From positions 37,262,001 to 37,326,000 of the forward strand of contig JAGIQG010000006.1 in NCBI GenBank assembly GCA_024679065.1: 64,000 bases of DNA, given 5' to 3'. This document shows positions 9,880 to 61,545 of the stretch, piece by piece. Every line of letters begins with the position of its first letter. Position 1 is the stretch's first letter. Origin of the DNA: Sphyrna mokarran (taxonomy: Eukaryota). Position numbers and translations under genes: made by a program. The notes beneath the pieces were generated by a model that saw only the letters and a list, made by a program, of their open reading frames with translations, searched no databases and was not told the DNA's origin.

Positions 9880-9920
9880 AAAGCGAGCTTTCAACACTCC
9901 CGTGTCTTCATCATGCAAGT
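9880..9920 (-). ncRNA. Minimal type I hammerhead ribozyme motif in the PLE terminal region (C3 mutated)
   Basis: - strand reads ttgc ATGATGA a gacac-ggga-gtgtt GAAA gc TC gc. This matches CUGANGA/stem II/GAAA/UH except for C3>A, with a palindromic AGCT stem III as in known PLE minimal hammerheads. Confidence 0.75.
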
Positions 9921-10131
9921 GCAGTGTTCTGGTCTGCAATAGCACACATCAGCACAGACAGTCAGAGATTGCTGATTAGAATGCGAATCCTTACATCTAA
10001 CCTGCTATTCAAGTGTTAAAGTGGCTAACAATGTGTGTGAAGGGAATCCTGAGCATTGTTTAGAGAATTGTGTATTTTCTCCAGACAGCACAGTAAGTGA
10101 GGTTTTTGCTAACCCAGGCAAGTTACGGGGG

Positions 10132-12222
10132 TTACAGATAGTGTGTCATGAAGCCAAGATCCCTGTTAAGACCGTCCTCATGTGTGCGGAGCTTGGCTAT
10201 CAGTCTCTGCTCAGCGACTCTGCGCTGTCGTGTATCACGAAAGCCCCCTTGAAGAACATTTACCCCCAGGTCGGAGGCCGAATGCCCATGACTGCTGAAG
10301 TGTTCGCCCACAGGAAGGGACCTGTTTTGCCTGGTGATTGCTGAGCGATGCTCATTCATCCGCTGTCGTAGTGTCTGCATGGTCTCCCCAATATACCATG
10401 CTTCGGGACATCCTTTCTTGCAACGTATTAGGTAGACAACGTTGGCCGAGTTGCAAGAGTATGTACCGTGCACCTGGTGAATGGTATCCTCACGTTTGAT
10501 GCTGTCGTCCATGTCTATGATCTGGCATGTCTTGCAGAGGTTGCTGTGGCAGGGTTGTGTGGTATTGTGGTCACTGTTCTCCTGAGGTTGGGTAGTTTGC
10601 TGCGAACAATGATCTGTTTGAGGTTGTGCGGTTGTCTGAAGGCAAGAAGTGGGGGGGTGGGGATGGCCCTAGCGAGATGTTCATCATCATCAATGATATG
10701 TTGAAGACTCCGGAGAAGATGTCGTAGCTTCTCCGCTCCGGGGAAGTACTGGACAACAAAGGGTACTCTGGCCACCGTGTCCCGTGTTCGTCTTCTGAGG
10801 AGATCAGTGCGGTTTATCGTTGTGGCACGTTGGAACTGTCGATCGATGAGTCGAGCGCCATATCCTGTTCTCACGAGTGCATCCTTCAGTGTCTGGAGGT
10901 GTCTGTCACGATCCTCCTCATCTGAGCAAATTCGGTGTATACGGAGGGCTTGTCCATAGGGAATGGCTTCTTTAACGTGTCTAGGGTGGAAGCGGGAGAA
11001 GTGGAGCATTGTGAGGTTGTCTGTCGGTTTTCGGTACAGTGAGGTGCTGAGGTGACCGTCCTTGATGGAGATGCGTGTGTCCAAGAATGCAACTGATTCT
11101 GGAGAATAGTCCATGGTGAGTCTGATGGTGGGATGGAATTTGTTGATATCATCATACAATTGTTTCAATGATTGTTCACCATGAGTCCAAAGGAAAAAGA
11201 TGTCATCAATGTATCTAGTATATAACCTTGGTTGGAGATCTTGTGTGGTGAAGAAGTCTTGTTCGAACCTGTGCATGAAGATGTTGGCATACTGAGGTGT
11301 GAATTTGATCCCCATGGCTGTTCCGTGTGTCTGGATGAAAAGCTGATTGTTGAAGGTGAAGACATTGTGGTCCAAGATGAAGCGGATGAGTTGTAAAATT
11401 GCATCTGGAAACTGGCAGTTGTTGGCATTGAGTACTGAGGCAGTTGCATCAATACCATCGTCGTGGGGGATGTTGGTGTAGAGCGCCGAGACATCCATTG
11501 TGACAAGGAGTGTCCCTGTTTCTACTGCTCCGTGTGTGCTGAGTTTCTGCAGGAAGTCCGTAGTGTCAAGACAAAAGCTGGGGGTTCTTTGTACGATGGG
11601 TTTCAGGATGCCCTCGATATAGCCAGAGAGGTTCTCACACAGGGTCCCATTGCCAGATACGATGGGACGGCCAGGTATGTTTGCCTTGTGTATCTTTGGG
11701 AGGCAGTAGAGATCGCCAATGCGGGGAGTACGTGGAATGAGAGCCCGGAGGGTGTTCTGAAGGTCCGGATCAAGGGTTTCGATCAGAGTGTTGAGTTGAC
11801 GCGTGTGTTCTTTGGTCGGATCTGCTGGTAACTGTCTGTAGTGTTTCTCATTGTTTAGTTGTCGGTACCCTTCTTCACAGTAGTCCGTTTTGTTCAGTAT
11901 GACGGTGGCGCCTCCTTTGTCTGCTGGTTTGATGACAATGTTGCGGTTGGTCTTGAGAGCACGGATGGCCTTGCGTTGTCCTTGGGTGATGTTCGGGACT
12001 GTCTTGTAAGTGCGGTTGATAAATCTGGTGTTCACGCACCTCCTGATGGCTTGGGCATACATGTCCAGTCGGGGGCAGCGGCCTTCCGGAGGAGTCCCAT
12101 TGGATTCATTCCTCTTCGGTTGCTGCACTGCGGATCCCTCTGTCGGCTGTTCTGGTTCATTCGCTATCTCATTGAGTCCACTATTGGCCTCTTGGGGTTT
12201 GTGGAAGAAACCGAAACCTTCT
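10132..12222 (-). pseudogene. PLE RT + GIY-YIG endonuclease ORF broken by one frameshift near 10583
   Basis: RT motifs IVIKPADKGG, LPKIHK, GRPIVS, MDVSALYTNIP, GTAMG and RYIDDIF; Cys linker PCHSNLCKTC in the shifted frame; endonuclease NVVYLIRC...YIGET...LRQRMNEHR...HF...GLNRD. Confidence 0.93.
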
Positions 12223-13044
12223 TTCTGCCAAGAAGCCAACTTTGTTTCCATTTAGGCACTTCACCCTGGATTCCGTGAGATTTAACCTTTTGCAACAATC
12301 TACCCTGCGGTACCTTGTCAAAGGCCTTGTTAGAGTCCTTGTAGACAATATCAACTGCACTGCCCTCATCTACCTTCTTGGTTACCCCTTCAAAAAACTC
12401 AATTAAATTTGTGAGATATGATTTTCCATTCACAAAACCATGCTGACCGTCCTTAATCAGTCCTTGCATCTTTAATGCTTGTAGATTCTTCCAACAATTT
12501 ACTCACCACAGATGTGAGGCTAACTGGCCTATAGTTCATAGGCTTTTCCCTGCAGCCCTTTTTAAACAAAGACACTATATTTATGATTCTCCAATCTTCA
12601 GACACATCACCCATGACTATCTATGATTTAAATATCTCTACTAAGGGACCCACAATTTCCTCCCTAGCCTCCCACGACGTCCTGGGATACACTTTATCAG
12701 ATTCCAGGGTTTTATCTGCCTCGATGTGCTTTAAGACTTCCAGCACCTCCCTCTCTGTAATATGTATACTTCTCAAGGCATCACTGTTTATTTCCCCATA
12801 CTGACTCCAGGGTTGCTCAGCTTGATTTGCAGGGAATGCCGGAAGAGAAATCGGACTTTTCAGGTCACTTTCCCCCAGGATGGGTTTGTAGAGCTGCTAA
12901 ATGACTGTTCTCCTGATCCGGGAGAGAAATTCCAGGCCTATGAGTTCAGGTTGGGTTTTGTAAATTGATACTTTGTTCCAGAGGTGGCAGAGGGTTGAGA
13001 CTGGAAGTTCTAATTCCAACAAATAGTTAAAGGAAGGGTTCATA

Positions 13045-25764: not shown

Positions 25765-25895
25765 TAAAAACAAATTACTGTGGATGCTAGAAATTGAAAC
25801 CAAAAGAAAATGCTGAAAAATCTCAGCAGGTCTATCAGCATCTGTAAGGAGAGAAAAGAGTTTACATTTCGAGTCCAGATGACCCTTGTCAAAGT
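25765..25895 (-). mobile_element. Short hammerhead-bearing repeat (Penelope pLTR-like)
   Basis: - strand reads act TTGACAA gggtc atctg gactc GAAA tg TA; shares the body ctgctgagattttccagcatttt with other copies. Confidence 0.8.
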
Positions 25896-26147
25896 TGGCT
25901 TCTTGCATCTGGAGGGAGCACTCCTGCTCCTCCCGGCCTACAGAAATTTTTATGTTTGCAATTGCTTCATTGGCCTGGCCTTCTCACTTCTCTTTAACTG
26001 CTAGGAATCCCAAACTCCACAGCTGGCATGAGTTAAATTTATAAAGTCTGGTAAAATGGAAGCTTTCTTAAAAGATTTCAGCAATTGATCTGCAATCTGA
26101 GAGCAGATTGGTTCAAAATGTTCAAAGCAGACATTCATAAATATCAC

Positions 26148-26500: not shown

Positions 26501-27159
26501 TGGTTCCAACCCATTCTCCGGATTGAAATTACCTCCTGTTTCTTCTTGGTGCACTTATAGAAGAATTTTTAAAAAATACATGTTTCTTTGTGCTCTTTGA
26601 TGCCTCAGACAGAGGAAGTGTATGTACCAAGGAAGGTGTGGGATTGTATTGTTCAACAGTTTCATAATTAATAGGCTTCCTTGTTGTAAGTGTTGAAGCA
26701 GTTCAACAAATTAACTTCAAGAGGTGTGACAACTGTTGCCCAGGGAATGAACAGCCAGTGACACAATCTTGTCTAGCTAACAAAAATAGAGAAGGTTCTT
26801 TTTGGAAGCAAAATACAGTAACATGGGGCTGACATTCATGTAGAATCCTCTGACAGTTCCAGGTCTTCTGCAGCATTTGTGAAGTGCAAGATGATTTTGA
26901 AAGAACATTAAATGCAAGATGCTACTAGTTATTCCAAAGGAGTTGGAATGTCAGGTTCTTCACTAATTAATCTTAAACCTTCTGATATCAAAAAATGCTT
27001 AAAGGAATTTTGTGGGTTCCACCCACCCCATCTTTTCCCCTCATTATAACACTCTTCTTGAATGCTCAGATTTTCAAACAGTACTGTATTTTAGTCAACA
27101 ACAAGTTGGATCATCTAGTTTTCTTCTTATCTTTGCCCTTCTGAATATGCACACTGACA

Positions 27160-28448
27160 AGAGAGAAATGAATTGATTGGGGATAGTCAGCATGGTTTCG
27201 TGAAGGGTAGGTCATGCCTTACTAACCTCATTGAGTTTTTTGAGAAAGTGACCAGAGAGGTGGATGGGGGTAAGGCGGTTGATGTAGTATATATGGACTT
27301 TAGTAAGGCTTTTGATAAGGTGGCCCATGGAAGACTTCTACAGAAAATGCAGATGTGTGGAATAGAGGGTGATTTAGCTAATTGGATTAGGAATTGGCTG
27401 GCAGATAGAAGACAGAGGGTGGTGGTTGATGGGAGATATTCATCGTGGAGTTCGGTGACGAGTGGTGTGCCTCAGGGGTCTGTTTTGGGGCCCCTGCTGT
27501 TTGTAATTTTTATAAATGATCTGGATGAGGGTATTCAGGGATGGATCAGTAAATTTGCAGATGATACTAAAGTTGGTGGAGTGGTAGATAGTGAAGAGGG
27601 GTGTTTTAGTTTACAGAGTGACTTGGACAAGTTGCAGAGCTGGGCCGAGAGGTGGCAAATGGAGTTTAATGTGGAAAAGTGTGAGGTAATGCACTTTGGC
27701 AGGAACAATAAATGTGTAGAGTATAGGGCTAATGGTAGGGCTCTTAATAGTGTTGAGGAACAGAAGGATCTTGGTGTATGTGTCAATAGATCCCTGAAAG
27801 TAGGCAGTCAAGTGGATAAAGTTGTTAAGAAGGCATATGGAGTCTTAGCTTTTATTGGTAGGGGGATTGAATTTAGGAGCCGCAGCATCATGTTGCAACT
27901 GTACAAAACTCTAGTGCGGCCGCACTTGGAGTATTGTGTGCAGTTCTGGTCGCCACATTATAAGAAAGATGTGGAGGCATTGGAGAGGGTACAGAGGAGG
28001 TTTACCAGGATGTTGCCTGGTATGGAGGGCAGGTCCTATGAAGAGAGGTTGAAGGATTTGAGGTTGTTTTCGTTAGAAAGGAGGCGGCTAAGAGGGGATC
28101 TTATTGAAGCATATAAGATGATTAGAGGTTTAGATAGGGTGGACAGTGATAGCCTTTTTCCTAGGATGGAGAAAGCTAGCACGAGGGGACACAGCTTTAA
28201 ATTAAGGGGTATGAGTTATAGGACGGATATCAGAGGTAGGTTCTTTACTCAAAGAGTGATTAGGGAGTGGAATGCCCTGCCTGCAGCTGTTGTAGATGCG
28301 CCAAGTTTGGTGGCGTTTAAGAGGTTAGTTGATAAGTATATGGATGAGAAGGGAATGGTTTAGTTAGGAGGGGCATTGCTTTTTATTTTGGTCGGCACAA
28401 CATCGAAGGCCGAAGGGCCTGTTCTGTGCTGTATTGTTCTATGTTCTA
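27160..28448 (+). mobile_element. Young 5'-truncated CR1 LINE
   Basis: Uninterrupted RT-to-C-terminus frame, 3'UTR gggcctgttctgtgctgta and ttctatg tail. Confidence 0.95.
27173..28363 (+). CDS. CR1 ORF2 reverse transcriptase C-terminal part (396 aa; start is not native)
   Basis: QHGFVKGRSCLTNL, YMDFSKAFDKV, SGVPQGSVLGPLLF, KFADDTK and LEYCVQFWSP. Confidence 0.9.
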   Translation: MIGDSQHGFVKGRSCLTNLIEFFEKVTREVDGGKAVDVVYMDFSKAFDKVAHGRLLQKMQMCGIEGDLANWIRNWLADRRQRVVVDGRYSSWSSVTSGVPQGSVLGPLLFVIFINDLDEGIQGWISKFADDTKVGGVVDSEEGCFSLQSDLDKLQSWAERWQMEFNVEKCEVMHFGRNNKCVEYRANGRALNSVEEQKDLGVCVNRSLKVGSQVDKVVKKAYGVLAFIGRGIEFRSRSIMLQLYKTLVRPHLEYCVQFWSPHYKKDVEALERVQRRFTRMLPGMEGRSYEERLKDLRLFSLERRRLRGDLIEAYKMIRGLDRVDSDSLFPRMEKASTRGHSFKLRGMSYRTDIRGRFFTQRVIREWNALPAAVVDAPSLVAFKRLVDKYMDEKGMV

Positions 28449-28596: not shown

Positions 28597-28741
28597 TGCA
28601 ACCAAAAGAGAAAGTGTTGGAAAATCTCAGCAAGTCTGGCAACATTTGTAAGGGGAGAAAAGAGCTAGTGTTTCGAGTCCAGATGATCCTTTGTCAAAGC
28701 TTCTCATCTGGTTTCAGCATCTGCAGTCATTTGCTTATATC
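28597..28741 (-). mobile_element. Short hammerhead-bearing repeat with 10-bp TSD
   Basis: TSD cagtgataca at 28587-28596 and 28742-28751; - strand reads agct TTGACAA a ggatc atctg gactc GAAA. Confidence 0.85.
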
Positions 28742-29394
28742 CAGTGATACAAGCGAGTTTTCCAAGGAAAGCCCAAACTGTCTTAAAGCCCGCAACTGAG
28801 GTTGACGGTATCTTTGATGCAGCAAAGATTTTTATAGCTCAGAACAAGCTAACTTCCTCATTTTTATGTGTTGGTTTTTTTTTTGAAATATTTTGACATT
28901 TTTGACATTGGAAACTGTTCTTTCTATGGTCTTTTTATATTGCAGGGGTATCGTAGAAAACAAACCCACTGCAGCCAGCGTAGAAACCACCTCACTTACC
29001 ATTTCCATTCTAACCAGTAGTAGACTATAATACAGTACCGTTTGGAAATCTGAGGATTCAAGAAGTGTATTATAATGAAAGGGAAAAGATATGGTGGGTA
29101 GAACGCACAAAATTCCTTTGAACGTTTTTTTGATATGAAAAGATTTGAGATTAATTAGTGAGAAGCCTGATATTCCATCTCCTTTGGAATAAGTAGTAGC
29201 ATCTCTCATGAAATATTCTTTCAAAATCATCTTATTTTCCCAAATCCATACTAATTCAAGTCACAGTAACTGACAATGGAAAAAAAAGAAGAAAATTGAA
29301 AAAGAGGAAATTAAAAAATTGAATTTCGAATATCTCTTGTTGCATCCGACAGGGTGTACCAAACTTGACCCAGCAAGACTTAATTCAAGAACTT

Positions 29395-29516
29395 TGACAA
29401 GAGCTTAGTCCATGAGCTTTGACAAAAGGTCATCTGGACTTGAAACATCAGCTCTTTTCTCTTCTTACAGACGTTGCCAAACCTGCTGAGATTTTCCAGC
29501 GTTTCCTCTTTTGGTC
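29395..29516 (+). mobile_element. Short hammerhead-bearing repeat with 9-bp TSD
   Basis: TSD caagaactt at 29386-29394 and 29517-29525; gagct TTGACAA a aggtc atctg gactt GAAA ca TC agctc. Confidence 0.85.
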
Positions 29517-30418
29517 CAAGAACTTAGCTGTCCCTAACATTTCTTTGAGATTCTAAGATAGTAAAAAACATTTTGAATAACCAATTCATACGTGTAATGT
29601 GGAGACTCGGCACATGAACAGAATGTGCTTATTTTGTGAGGTAAATATTATTGTCTGTTTAGAGTGAAGAAGTACAGAACGGGAATGATAAATGGGCTTA
29701 TTGATTGGAAGGCAAACCCCAAATATAATTCAGAAAGGCCACTCTTATTCTATCAGTCACTGCATCAGAAATCACAGAGCTCCTTGCTTTCCGCTGATTT
29801 ACTGGCCTGCCATTTTCTGTCAAGTAAGGTGAGAGCAACATCTTGTAGACTGTCATTACACACTGCCATCACTTAATAGGCCTCGAAATTCTGTTACCTT
29901 CAGTTTGCAAAGGATGTGAGGAAAGATTTTCAAGATGATTTCATGAATCATTTATGAATTTGAGATATACTACACATGATCTGATATATCAAGCTATTAG
30001 CAGGGGTAGGAATAAAGGATTGCTTCTTTTCTCGTGTTGCTAAGGAAGCCTTAACAAAACAACCAGATATATAAAATTCACATATGTTGCTCACTTCTTA
30101 GAGAAAGGTTAGGAGCAGCAGCAAACAAGAAATTAAAAGAACTTGCTTTTTAATTGTGCCTAATCATGTCCCACAGAAGAATTTTCACGTAATGTCCATT
30201 ATTTTTCATGCTGAGTAATTGTGACTGAAGCTAAAACGATGGACAAGTTGCAACCAGCAAGATTCCACAAATAATAATCAGGTGGATAGCAATAAATCTA
30301 TTTTTGGCAGTGCAGATAATAAACACTGACTGGAGATGGAATGACATTACAGGGCTGTTCCAAGGTTTGGAGCAGATAAAGCAACTGTAAGCCCCAGCAG
30401 AATAAGTCAGAGAATCAT

Positions 30419-42843: not shown

Positions 42844-43654
42844 TGAGCTTCTGTCCTACCTGATAAAAGAACAGGGACTTCCAGGAATTACTGAACTGTA
42901 TCAAATGAATTGTAATCCAATCTGGAACTACACCCGTTCTGCCTGTAGCTGTGAATGTCACAGTTACACTAAATGTCTGGCACTTTTTATTCATCACAAG
43001 AGATTCCTAAGGATTATCCGGCGCACTGATTAGTATTACACATAACTATTTACACAGTATAAATGAAGTATCATTCCACAGAGTAGCAGAGTAATGGAGA
43101 GCTGGAGCAATAGTTTGTCAGACTTTAATTCTACGCAATGATACCTTGCTGAAATTCCTACTCTTTAGGCAACTGCTCTAGTATGAGGTAGGACATCACT
43201 TCCCCAATCAGTGGTTGCCACTACTGGTGCTGCAGTTAGAGGTGAGGAGGTGACACTCAGTGATGGACCTTATAAACCTGAAACCTCTCCAAAGGAAGGC
43301 TGACAGGCCCTGGAGAGAGGAGTGGCGACATGTTGGACAGGCGAGGAGGAAGGAACTGTTGGGAGGGTGGTGGGAGCTTTGGCATAGGGGAGTCTGGGAG
43401 GATGTAGCTCTCCTTTCACTGACCACCAGCCACAGGGTTCAACTTACTGGGTTACATATTGGGCACAGGCCTTTCCCACCACCCGTTAAACTGGTGTGGT
43501 GATGGGATAAGGCTCATAATTGGATATTAATTTCCCACTTAAGGAGCACAATTGGGTTATGGGCTGGTGGCAACCCATCTGATTCCTCCCTCACCATCCA
43601 TGCGCAGACTGGCAACGGCTATGTTGTCAATAGCACGACACCCTAATTTATCAG

Positions 43655-43758
43655 ACAAAGCTCTGACGGAGGGTCAGCCAGACTCGAAATGTTGGCTCCA
43701 TTCTCTCTCCACAGATGCTCAAAGACCTGCAGAGATTTTCCAGCGCTTTCTGTTTTTG
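43655..43758 (+). mobile_element. 104-bp hammerhead-bearing insertion with perfect 15-bp TSD
   Basis: TSD accctaatttatcag at 43640-43654 and 43759-43773; agct CTGACGG a gggtc agcca gactc GAAA tg TT ggct. Confidence 0.9.
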
Positions 43759-44094
43759 ACCCTAATTTATCAGTTTACCCATTCATTTTCCTATCCATGG
43801 GTGGCCTGTGAAATTCAACCCATGTTTATCTCATTTTCACTGCAGCTGCGTACACTTTCTATGAAATAAGAGGCAGGGATAAACAAAACCTAGGAGGGAT
43901 GAACTCAATTAGAGTTACTATTAGGGGCACCTACACCAGCGACTGTAACCCTTCCCCCAGGAACTCACAAGGTTAAACAATTGCACTGTTGCCTCATCAA
44001 CTGGTGTTAGCATTTCAATTTCTCACTGTTCAATATCCAGTTTTGGGTGGTCTGTTGAGTAGAAACTACCTGGAGTTTGTCTTCCTTCACATCA

Positions 44095-49250: not shown

Positions 49251-49810
49251 AGATTGCTACCTCTCACTGCAATACATTTTCAATATCTATTATGTAACTT
49301 TATCATGATATTTCATTCCTCAATAAGATTTAAATAAACAAAAATGGGATATAGGCCAATAGACAAAAGATGCTGGATAGAGCTGGATAAGATTGGAGTC
49401 AATGGAAAAGACTCCTGAGAATCACGTGCAGGATAAAACAGGACACTGATTTACTATGAACCTACTACACACTCCTCTCGTAGCAATTTCTCTCCACAAA
49501 GTCTATTGACAGTGAAATTCCATCAGCAATAGAATTCCAATCATGAATCCACCCTCTGTTACCAGATAATTATGGAGGACAATGACCATCTAGCCCCGCT
49601 CATCTCTTCTATCCAGAATGACATAAAAACATGTGCAGTAGGAACAGAGTTAAACCATTCGGCCCCACGTGCCTGTTTAGTAATTTGTTAACATTGCTAA
49701 CATTATACCAGTGATTGCAACTCAGAAATGTTTTATTAGTTGATTTGGGACATTGTGAAAGGTGTTATCCATTTTGTCTTTTTTTCACTATGCAGTGTGC
49801 ACTATGCACT

Positions 49811-49924
49811 ATAATTATCCTTAGAGAATCAACATTGTGCCTCCAATTTCACCATTACTACATCATAGTATCTGTAGTAATGGTGAAATTGGAGGCACAA
49901 TGTTGATTCTCTAAGGATAATTAT
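49811..49924. repeat. Perfect inverted repeat with 52-bp arms and 10-nt spacer
   Basis: 49811-49862 is the exact reverse complement of 49873-49924. Confidence 0.97.
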
Positions 49925-50288
49925 TCACAGAGTGATCAATGTTAGGAAAGGAGCTACAAAGAAATCTTTACATTTACAACCGGCAAGTCAGCCCAATATC
50001 CTGTTCCCTGTGCTGTCTTACATTGCTCCCTTATTCATTCTAAATAAGGAGAAGAAACATCTCCCCATTCACCATGTTACCCTTAAACCAATGCTGTGGC
50101 AAGGTGACATTGAAATCTCCAAATTTTAGCTTCACATGTTGTTTTATCCATTTCCAGCTCCACAGAGGTTTCTCATGCCTATTATGGACTACAGATCAAA
50201 GATTGAATATGATTACATATTACCCAAAGATGGTTTAATTATTTTTAACATTTCTCTTTCTGTCTAAGCTTCTGTCCTGGGTTAGGGT

Positions 50289-54849: not shown

Positions 54850-56600
54850 TGTACATTATTCCTTTAAACACATCTGAGATTTCAACAAAATTAAGGAGAA
54901 TGCAGGGATAGTTTGTCAATACAATAAGAGTAAAAGAGTAACTAAGGAAAGAGTAGGGTCTATAAATGACCAAAAAGGTAACTTGTGTGTGGAGGTGAAG
55001 GATGTGGGTATTGTTCTTAATTAATACTTTGCATCAATCTTCACAAAAGATGGGAATAATGCAGATATCACACTGCAGAAATATTGGATATAATAAACAT
55101 AGGAGGAGTGTAATTGTTACAGAGATTAGCATCCTTGAAAGTGGATAATTCACCGCGATCAGATGAAATGGACCCAGGTTATTAAAATAAACCAGACAGG
55201 AAATAGTGGAGGGCCTGATCATTGTTTTCTAATCCTCACAGAATGTCAGAGGACTGCAGTCCTGTTCATGTTGCGTCTTTATTGAAAAAGGAAGAGAGGG
55301 ATATACCAAATGATTGTAGGCTAGTTGGTGTGGCCTTGGTAGAGGAAGAATGATTGGAAGCATAAACTTACACTTAGGAAGGCGCGGATTAATCAAGGAC
55401 TGTCAGCATAGATTTGTTAAGGGGAGGTCATTTCTGACAAATTTGATTGCATTTTCTGAGCAAGTAACAAGGGCGATTGATGAGGGTAGTATAGTTAATG
55501 TGTTCTACATTGATTTTAACAAGACATTTTTCAAGGTGCCACATACCAGACTGGTTAAAAACACAAAAGCCCATGGGACTCAGGGGCAGATACAAAATTG
55601 CTCAGTCACAGGAAACAAACAGTATTTGTTTATGGGTGTATTTGTAACTGGAAGGTTCTTTCCAGTGGGTTCCACAAGATTCAAGACCAGGCTCTTGCTT
55701 TTCACAGATATTAATGATTTGGATGTAAATGGAGGGGGGATGATCAAGAAGTTTTCAGATGACACAGAAATTGGCCGCATGGCTGATAGTGAAGAGGATC
55801 GCTGTAAACTGCTGGAAGGTATCAATAGACTGGTCAGTGAACATAATAATTCAACCCAGAGAAATGTGGGTGTCTCATTTGGGGAGATAAAGCAAAGAAA
55901 GGATTGCACAATAAATGGGAGGAATACTGAGAGATGTAGAGAAAGTGAGGGACTTTAGAGTAAATATCTACAGATTCCCGAAGGTAGAGGATAGATTGAT
56001 GAGGTGACCGAGACGGCAAATGGAATCCTTTCATTTATTATCTTGCGCAAAGAGGTCATGCTGAAATGATATAAAACATTAGTTAGGCTGCAGCTTCAAT
56101 ACTGAGTGCAGTTCTGGTCATCTCATTACAGAAAATATGTAATTACATTAGAGAGGGTGCAGAGGAGATTCATCAGGATGTTACCAGGACTGGAAAATTG
56201 CAGCTATGAGAAATGATTGGATAAGTTGGGGCTGTTCTCAGTGGAACAGAGGAAACTGAGAGGAGATTTAACTGAGATGTACAAAATTGTTCATTCACTT
56301 TTTTCAACAGCTAAGGGGCAAAGGTTTAAAGCGATTGGTTGAAAGATTAGAGGGGAGATGGGGATAACCTTTTTCATCCAGAGGGTTGTGTGATGTGGAA
56401 CTCACTATCTGAAAGGGTAGCAGAGACAGAAAGGTTCAATTCATTTAAAAGGTGTGTGGATATGTACCTGAAGTGCTGTAACCTGCAGATCTACAGACAA
56501 AATGCTCAGAAGTGGGACTAACTGAGTGGCTCATTTTTCAGCTGGCACAGATATGAGGGACCAAGTGGCCTCCATCTGTGCGATAAACAGTCTATGACTT
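54850..56600 (+). mobile_element. Degraded CR1 LINE
   Basis: QHRFVKGRSFLTNLIAF and KFSDDTEIG; many stops and frameshifts. Confidence 0.85.
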
Positions 56601-58230: not shown

Positions 58231-58430
58231 GGATAAATGCAAATTACTGTGGATGCTAGAATCTGAAACCAAAAGAGAAAATGCTGGAAAACCTCAGCGA
58301 GTCTGGCAGCATCTGAAAAGAGAGAAAAGAGCTGACATTTCGAGTCCAGATGACAGCTTTTACAAAGGGTCATCTGGATCTGAAACGTCAGCTCTTACAA
58401 AGCTCTTACAAAGAGCATTTTCTCTTTTGG
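58231..58430. mobile_element. Inverted double hammerhead-bearing repeat with 12-bp TSD
   Basis: TSD tgacctttctat / tgatctttctat at 58219-58230 and 58431-58442; opposed motifs at ~58328-58353 (-) and ~58354-58394 (+, ending GAAACGTCagctc). Confidence 0.85.
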
Positions 58431-59547
58431 TGATCTTTCTATATATTGGTTTGTGAATGCTGCAACTTCAGAGTTTTGCAGCATTTTGCTTCCTTCCATG
58501 TACTTGGGATAGAGAACTCCCATCACCTTATTTACGGCATGACTCAGCCCTGCCATCGCTATTCATTAGTTAGAGTTGATGGATTTAATAATAATTTTAA
58601 CTTTGTACAGCTCCAAAAATGTTATGCTTTCTCTTTGTGCTCTGGGAAATTGTAGATCCGATAGTTTCTGTAAAACACAGAGCTAAATACGTGAAGGACT
58701 GCGGCTCAGTATCAAATATTGTTTTGCCACCCTCCTGTACATCATCTTGGAAAGTTTCATTGCATTCATGGTGCTACGTAAATGTAAGTTGTTGTGGCAG
58801 TTGATCTCATCTAGCCTGACAGCAATTGAGAGCTTACGTGAGTGCCACTGAGGGCCTTAAGAAGCCCAAAACTTTACTGGGGAGAAATAATTGATCCTGG
58901 AGGAGACGTACTTCACAAAGTGCTTTTAACAAAAGAGGGGAGCTCTGCCAACTAATGCAGGAGCAGGAGTCAGCAGTCCCCACTGCAGTATTTATTGGTA
59001 TGAAGGGAATATTCTGTCTCATGCTTTGTAGTGATGGATTATTGCTGACAGTTACCAGGAATGGAAATTGGGATGCGGAATGGCCCTTTATTCATCAGTT
59101 AATACTTTTCACGGGAAAGTTAAAGAATTCAAGTTGGGCATTACAATAAGACCAATAAAGTCCAATAGAAAGTTGTTAGCTTTCCTGAGGTTTAGGACAC
59201 AATAGGCGGTGCAGCCCTGAGTTCCTAAAGTAATCCCTTTAACTCCATCAACAGGAACTCCTTCGAGCACAGACTGCATATACAAAGGAACCTGTCAATC
59301 GATGTCTCTTTTGTTGGAAGGATTACCCATGTGATTCTTCATTTGAGTTTGTTTTGTGCATTGGTGCCTAGGAACCTCTAGGAAGGAAAGGAGAATAATC
59401 TGCACATTAACAACTGAGCACTCCCAGCTTTCTCTTCTCATTTCTGATTTCTAGCATCTGCAGTATTTTGGTTTTGTTAAGTTTGTCTTGCCTGCCTTGG
59501 TCAAGATAGTGACCTTCTTGTGGAACTAATCTGCAGTTCTAGAGTGA

Positions 59548-60705: not shown

Positions 60706-61180
60706 CTGCTGTCCCAAGCCTGCTGCAGATATCTTGAATTACACTGAAGACAGCACAACATCCGAGCACATTACTCCATTTTATGTGGGACTTTCACTCC
60801 AGATTCTTCAATTGGTATGTAAATGAGTTCATCCAAAACATTATGGTGGATTCAACTCTGGATGGAATTGGCAGGTGAAACTCCAAACTTAAGAGTGCAA
60901 ATTCCAAGCAATGCACCACCCCCCCCTCAACATTTGGAATCCTGGAGTCTAAATATTTCTGATGCTGATCTATAGTTCTGTTTGCACATTTTCCTGTCAT
61001 TTCATCTGAAGTCTCTTCACCATCAAACTATAATTTGACATTTCCAAGTTAAGTTCCCCTGAGCTTGAGTTTTCCATTTTCCTTTCTATTCTAAACACCG
61101 AACCTGGTGATGTTGTTGCTCCCAAACTTTCAGATCACATACTTCTTTTTCATCGCTATTCCAAAGCAGTTCAAGTAAAT

Positions 61181-61545
61181 AAGAACAAAAAATGCTGGAT
61201 AAACTCAGGCAGCATCTGTGGAGAGAGAAACATTTCGAGTTCAATATGGCTCTTCTTCAGAACACAGCTCTTGACCACAGTTGTCCCGGAGAATAATCAT
61301 TTTGGACTTGAAATGTTAACTCTGTCTCATTCTCCACAGATGCTGCCAGCCCTGCTGAGTGTTTCCAGCACTTCCTTGGGCACATTTTTCCATTCCGCTC
61401 ACCACAGGAATCAGAGTGGGCGGGGACAGACCATAGAAAGACCATTTGACCTCGGGTGGGATTTTCCAATTTCGGGGCATTGGCAGGTAGAAAATCCCAT
61501 CCCTGTTTTTATTTCAGATTTCCAGCATCCTCAGTATTTGGCTTG
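61181..61545. mobile_element. Inverted hammerhead-bearing repeat with a nested MITE
   Basis: - strand reads CTGAAGA a gagcc atatt gaactc GAAA at ~61230-61260; opposed decayed copy at ~61285-61370; family 3' part resumes at 61504. Confidence 0.75.
61378..61503. mobile_element. ~125-bp MITE
   Basis: Termini gggcacattttt / aaaatcccatccc; homologue of 34534-34658. Confidence 0.65.

Follow-up and report, generated by a model that had tools for sequence, protein, structure and literature searches.

The flagged bases near 29.4 kb of the window, the window being the whole 64,000-nucleotide stretch of DNA that was analysed, are probably the minimal hammerhead of a decayed pLTR from a Penelope-like element (PLE), in which U3-A8 was inherited from the source of the youngest subfamily and the pair had been kept by selection for the active fold. 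The parts of this copy are as follows.

29415..29515, + strand: solo pLTR fragment of PLE subfamily A (hammerhead and downstream tail), ~100 bp, the same sequence comes after the RT/GIY-YIG ORF in long copies
29415..29418, + strand: stem I 5' strand, 4 nt; also the preferred 5' end of the element
29419..29425, + strand: core U3 U4 G5 A6 C7 A8 A9 (U3 at 29419, A8 at 29424)
29426, + strand: extra nucleotide (A) separating A9 from stem II, usual in PLE minimal hammerheads (PMC4209133)
29427..29441, + strand: stem II, 5 bp with a 5-nt loop; the pair that closes it, once G-C, has decayed to A-U
29442..29449, + strand: G12 A13 A14, A15.1 C15.2 A16.2 U16.1 and C17 (29449); predicted cut 3' of 29449
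29450..29453, + strand: stem I 3' strand
29454..29470, + strand: pyrimidine tract with CAG at its end; candidate splice-acceptor-like sequence
29386..29394, second copy 29517-29525, + strand: 9-bp duplication, possibly a target-site duplication

The core N3-UGA-N-N8-A, the GAAA and U16.1-H17 are all present in the four subfamily masters (for C and D, the search patterns prescribed these letters) and in the 29.4-kb copy, for which the original prediction had noted a perfect stem I and a stem II of 5 bp each. Both stems can be drawn at that length, but the fifth pair of stem I uses G29414, a flanking base rather than one of the element, whose own base at that site is T (opposite C) in 7/7 copies retaining it among 30 loci. 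The closing pair of stem II is A10.1-U11.1, as against G10.1-C11.1 in the master. This pair was rejected as a covariation: the four U3-A8 copies with A10.1 among the matches listed comprise two with U11.1 and two with C11.1, and A10.1-U11.1 therefore represents two separate decays. Nor is a well-kept ribozyme supported by position 16.2, where G has changed to A (29447). While the subfamily A master and intact copies such as L007 have the palindrome ACGU, the 29.4-kb copy reads ACAU at 29445-29448, and because of this substitution it has lost the palindrome needed for a dimeric stem III. The copy is thus predicted to be inactive as a ribozyme, and a poor witness.

Beside the 9-bp duplication of the same copy lie 20 nt of filler, which partly repeat the element's 5' end. 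Directly upstream (29379-29414), within the 9-bp duplication, there is a 25-nt partial repeat of that 5' end at 80% identity, possibly a template-switch product.

The repeat is the pLTR of an EN+ PLE with a minimal type I hammerhead. Upstream of the pLTR, five long subfamily A copies (L294, L296, L302, L306 and L311) carry RT, a zinc-finger (cysteine) linker and, at the C terminus, a GIY-YIG endonuclease. The endonuclease piece matched GIY-YIG clusters with a score of 0.96, and a Pfam search of three decayed RT/EN pieces gave no meaningful match; a CX2-5CxxC linker, of a type common to Neptune and Nematis, and the CCHH of the endonuclease are visible by eye in the translations. By its domain layout, the element fits the Neptune/Nematis-type EN+ PLEs, with which it shares the RT, the CX2-5CxxC linker and the C-terminal GIY-YIG, as well as 5' truncation and inverted copies; those elements may also have a tail of 30-40 bp (Craig et al. 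2021, PMC8557442). Here, 5' truncation and inverted adjacent copies are found in the 58.3-kb and 61.2-kb pairs of the window and in many other copies, and by an informal reading copies end near column 100 or ~136.

In an unbiased sample of 1.064 Mb (100 stretches plus the window), 67 fragments of the element were found, which extrapolates roughly to ~170,000 fragments in the 2.77-Gb genome. Exact tail motifs, whose lengths differ between the patterns, occur 1,448 times for subfamily A, 808 times for B and 330 times for C/D. Reversed-pattern controls gave 0 matches in each genome pattern search, and the matches are therefore not due to chance.

All six core readings of the original prediction were confirmed in the window sequence, three of them on the minus strand. 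The core is UUGACAA at 29419-29425 (+), 28697-28691 (-) and 25892-25886 (-), and UUUACAA at 58359-58365 (+); the two C3-G8 cores are CUGACGG at 43663-43669 (+) and CUGAAGA at 61260-61254 (-). None of the six copies is an intact ribozyme. The five outside 29.4 kb lie in the following features.

28600..28701, - strand: subfamily A copy, U3-A8; mismatch in stem II, U16.1 lost
25799..25896, - strand: subfamily A copy, U3-A8; 1-base deletion before stem II, mismatch in stem I
58256..58431, both strands: two subfamily A copies lying head to head; the one on the + strand (58355-58396) has U3-A8 with G5U
43659..43759, + strand: subfamily B copy, C3-G8, with A9G; 15-bp target-site duplication at 43640-43654 / 43759-43773
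61171..61376, both strands: head-to-head pair of subfamily C-type copies; the minus copy has C3-A7-G8 and is without the stem I 3' strand

An Rfam scan of the window returned no hammerhead match at E<=1, likely because stem III is missing. Assignment to a non-LTR retrozyme, which would consist of tandem ORF-less hammerhead repeats, was rejected: the window copies are solo or head-to-head and the parent element has an ORF. Where copies lie head to head, the point of inversion is often precisely the self-complementary stem I 4-mer, which yields perfect fold-backs, as in L088, L097, L215 and L328.

The window holds other repeats as well. A near-complete element of a second Penelope-like family, at 9880-12251 (-), has RT (PF00078, in a 577-aa open stretch) and GIY-YIG (PF01541) in different frames and is inserted into LINE-like sequence; in its pLTR, the hammerhead near 9917-9880 combines A3 with G8, and a relative in L067 has C3-G8. 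RT fragments (PF00078) at 27158-28363 (+) and 55320-55958 (+) are probably LINEs. At 49809-49926 lies a near-perfect 118-bp palindrome with a sub-threshold Rfam match to MIR7807 on both strands, which is probably a fold-back element and not a microRNA. Among the 20 of 23 long open frames that were scanned, none gave a Pfam domain of a host gene.

Subfamilies A and B were separated by clustering 152 near-complete copies on the tail alone, and C and D were added by targeted searches. The master of A has U3-C7-A8 with C17. The masters of B, C and D, all with U17, have C3-C7-G8, C3-A7-G8 and C3-U7-G8, respectively. Divergence from the respective tail consensus, based on the 68 of 112 loci with a usable tail, is 7.7% for A (26 copies), 11.7% for B (14), 16.8% for C (19) and 22.2% for D (9). 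Subfamily A is the youngest and largest wave, and since the older B, C and D have C3-G8, its U3-A8 is derived.

The association of U3-A8 with A is also seen when copies are picked by their tails only, at 30 loci for each subfamily. By hand tally, U3-A8 was found in 21/24 readable A copies (6/30 were unreadable and 2 were ambiguous) and in 0/20 readable B copies (10/30 were unreadable). Subfamily C gave C3-G8 in 19/30 and U3-A8 in 0, and subfamily D C3-G8 in 11/30 and U3-A8 in 3, although the search patterns for C and D fixed the core and some stem letters, so that the intactness of these two is partly built in. Six C-type motifs are identical (L271, L272 and four places on G000:C1104 near 130 Mb), which suggests a segmental duplication or a recent local amplification. 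The A-type sequence, with <5% other letters at positions 3 and 8, was also recovered in contigs of four sequencing runs from four organisms, a comparison in which the A-type reference favours A and one run may be the source.

The original prediction had proposed that a subfamily was amplified from a U3-A8 source, and the copies bear this out. Among 709 copies in A context, with positions 3, 7 and 8 left free in the search, G8 was found in 15, C3 in 13 and both in 0. These frequencies, 2.1% and 1.8%, are at the level of background mutation in the tail (A>G 10/262, Fisher p 0.17; T>C 13/647, Fisher p 0.85). As for the contingency test on position 3 and 8 haplotypes that had been suggested as a check, two things confound it at the level of single copies, namely common ancestry and the decay of the CpG in B, where the 81 rows among the matches listed (tallied by hand, after 19 of 100 listed were dropped for A-type loops) comprise C3-G8 43, C3-A8 23, U3-A8 6, U3-G8 2 and other 7.

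Could the U3-A8 copies instead be decayed C3-G8 or U3-G8 copies, and the pair a CpG artefact? The site at positions 7-8 is indeed a decaying CpG in B, with CA 25, TG 28 and CG 18 in the same 81 rows among the matches listed. In A, by contrast, a hand tally of the dinucleotide in the 100 matches listed gave CA 87, TA 8, CG 2, TG 0 and other 3, and TG occurs at 7-8 in only 3/709 A-context copies overall. Two true CpGs within 28 A copies show both decay products (CA 15, TG 7, CG 6 at one; CA 13, TG 7, CG 7, other 1 at the other), so that TG at 3/709 compares with 7/28 at true CpG sites of the same copies. An intermediate master with U3-G8 or C3-A8 was sought among the copies and none was found; copies with these haplotypes, in groups that included a few neighbouring inverted copies, have A-type tails and no private changes in common. 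The counts thus refute the CpG artefact, to which we give next to no probability, and G8A in subfamily A is not CpG decay.

What, then, kept the pair in the source of subfamily A? Positions 3 and 8 are paired in the catalytically active conformation, and minimal structures in the ground state lack this pair (PMC3884650). Selection on the active fold is therefore the likeliest reading, the change to U3-A8 being a likely trace of a parent element selected for a ribozyme that still folds into its working form. The masters of A and B differ in 13/104 columns, of which 6 lie inside the ribozyme, namely positions 3, 8 and 17, position 1.1 (A-U vs G-U) and two bases in a loop, and all six are compatible with the fold. 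Across the four masters, 2.2-1.2 is C-G or U-A, 10.1-11.1 is G-C (A, B and C) or A-U (D), and 10.2-11.2 is G-U, A-U or G-C. No pair is broken in any of them, and stems I and II covary, although part of this was set in advance by the search patterns for C and D; counts of pairs made on 10 hand-picked copies are illustrative only.

The swap at 3-8 is one evolutionary event. Because the copies are not independent, having inherited a single swap by shared ancestry, the four window copies (or the 709) amount to a single observation. In simulations with six random substitutions, the A and B masters were both intact in 0.7-1.2% of runs, and 3-8 was Watson-Crick in 2.5-3.4% of cases in which either base had changed; the simulation uses a simple model and is post hoc, the swap having been chosen after it was seen. 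The selection invoked by the original prediction is therefore upheld in part, as selection on the fold rather than for cleavage as such, by four masters that keep every pair while several pairs covary, against which stand the single swap and a simulated chance of ~0.03.

A neutral history would produce the same bases if the source lineage could do without the ribozyme and two independent transitions, first G8A, favoured by the CpG, and then C3U, happened to restore the pair. Any two transitions in a C-G pair yield U-A, both changes are of the commonest kind (C>T ~10% and G>A ~8% in the copies), there was one event only, and 6/81 B-type rows among the matches listed have U3-A8, either by decay or as A copies with a loop change. 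The ribozyme of a lizard PLE is, moreover, dispensable for insertion in vitro (PMC11167929). Nevertheless, the simulated chance is small for the 3-8 pair and ~1% for the whole motif remaining intact, 0/4 subfamily masters have a broken pair, C3-G8 also prevails in two unrelated PLE families of the sample, and the same swap recurs in unrelated hammerheads (PMC4209133, PMC3088659). We consider such a coincidence unlikely, and selection for the active fold remains our preferred reading, although it concerns a single event chosen after it was seen, and cleavage in this family is itself a prediction.

The 5' ends of the copies bear on how the ribozyme might act. In 19/20 matched long copies, of 30 examined, a distance of 30 nt separates a TATA box from the stem I base that comes first, and B and C copies have the box at this distance too; the loci concerned are L287-L316 and L009 (around 1470-1501). 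In each of the four sequencing runs, 5' breakpoints are most frequent at that stem I base (306, 445, 360 and 297 contigs). Among the unbiased fragments, 25/67 have 5' ends in columns 1-5 and only 2/67 near the cut site, as judged from alignment starts, which are approximate. This base also ends a pyrimidine tract plus AG, and a second acceptor-like tract lies 3' of the ribozyme; Drosophila Penelope has an intron whose end is at helix I (PMC4209133). That the pile-up of 5' ends stems from splice junctions was rejected, the upstream flanks being unrelated between copies. We infer that transcripts begin with the first stem I base and that the short copies, which begin at the 5' end of the ribozyme and rarely near the cut site, were made from uncut RNA.

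In the mechanism that we propose, the transcript would begin with stem I, whose first base lies 30 nt past the TATA box. Lacking a stem III of its own, the ribozyme would depend for its cut after C17 either on a second copy, with which the ACGU palindrome would join it into a dimer, or on help from the element's protein. In cofolding, the form of lowest energy was not the hammerhead dimer, but the method is blind to tertiary pairs and this result is therefore uninformative. Cutting would remove a capped leader of 35 nt or split tandem transcripts. Reverse transcription would begin downstream and copy uncut RNA into many short copies, which would then decay neutrally. Selection would act on rare source elements and not on the window copies, and the benefit of cutting, if any, may lie in the life of the source element, in removal of the leader or resolution of tandem transcripts.

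That copies derive from uncut RNA might also mean that the fold was selected for some role other than cutting, serving the element's protein, splicing or the internal promoter as a structure for binding or folding. The motif lies where transcription appears to begin and directly ahead of a splice-acceptor-like tract, which would suit such a role, and the authors of PMC4209133, who found low activity in vitro, leave non-cleavage roles open. Yet the 3-8 pair belongs to the active conformation (PMC3884650) and would not be kept by plain selection on secondary structure; all masters have also kept the palindrome and a non-G at position 17. A purely non-cutting role is therefore quite improbable in our view, and selection for the active fold is again preferred.

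U3-A8 in this genome is a further instance of a variant already published for PLE hammerheads. In Schistosoma mansoni, U3-A8 occurs in the Cercyon elements, with ~1,300 matches (Cervera and de la Pena 2014, PMC4209133). The metazoan PLE minimal hammerheads of that study resemble the present motif in being type I with a short stem I, an extra base between 9 and 10.1 and G10.1-C11.1, in having no stem III and a palindromic 15.2-16.2, and in residing in pLTRs, mostly solo or as inverted pairs. They differ in setting: here, U3-A8 is found in a vertebrate-type genome, in the youngest and largest subfamily of one lineage whose C3-G8 ancestors are still datable. Fig. S3 of the same study has two U3-A8 rows, and its 10 chordate species are all C3-G8 and include no cartilaginous fish; the words 'shark' and 'Callorhinchus' have 0 occurrences in the text of it that was searched. 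Its supplement gives a Saccoglossus PLE motif with U3 and G8, which counts against our main reading. More generally, C3-G8 covaries to U3-A8 in several natural hammerheads, and U3-A8 variants were earlier shown to be active in vitro (Perreault et al. 2011, PMC3088659, the latter point citing Przybilski and Hammann 2007); as far as its searched portions go, that work covers hammerheads at large, not PLE minimal motifs, and gives no within-family history.

A reconstituted system for comparison is PAc, a Poseidon element from Anolis carolinensis (Frangieh et al. 2024, PMC11167929), which likewise has a pLTR hammerhead and in which reverse transcription starts internally, on uncut RNA. Its hammerhead cuts only with protein present, and C3G/G8C partly rescues cutting. 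PAc differs in belonging to another clade (the element here has a zinc-finger linker), in its C3-G8 core and in that the engineered pair was G3-C8 rather than U3-A8. Mutating the PAc ribozyme left insertion unchanged in vitro, none of the reads had an end at the cut site, and Naiad PLEs proliferate without hammerheads (PMC8557442); these observations, like the origin of the present copies from uncut RNA, count against the main reading. Further related literature comprises PMC6765202, PMC6155905, PMC7151607 and bioRxiv 10.64898/2026.07.22.740005. A report of this particular U3-A8 subfamily was not found in the literature searched, which covered few subscription papers.

The changes C3U, G8A and U17C all arose on the branch to subfamily A, where every non-loop change in the ribozyme lies in the core. 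Hammerheads with C17 cut faster than those with U17. If U3-A8 slows cutting and C17 restores it, the three changes would amount to an epistatic retuning of the ribozyme just before its largest amplification wave, a speculative proposal that we regard as doubtful. Should it be true, the four dated subfamilies, whose transcripts would carry the motif within their first 40 nt, would provide a natural test series for Penelope hammerheads in a vertebrate.

PLE hammerheads cut poorly in vitro, are dispensable for insertion in one reconstituted system and are missing from some clades. The pair that was swapped here is confined to the active fold, and the fixation of such a compensatory change in a very successful vertebrate subfamily is an indirect sign that activity matters in the source elements. 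Descriptors that require CUGANGA, moreover, overlook the most abundant subfamily in this genome.
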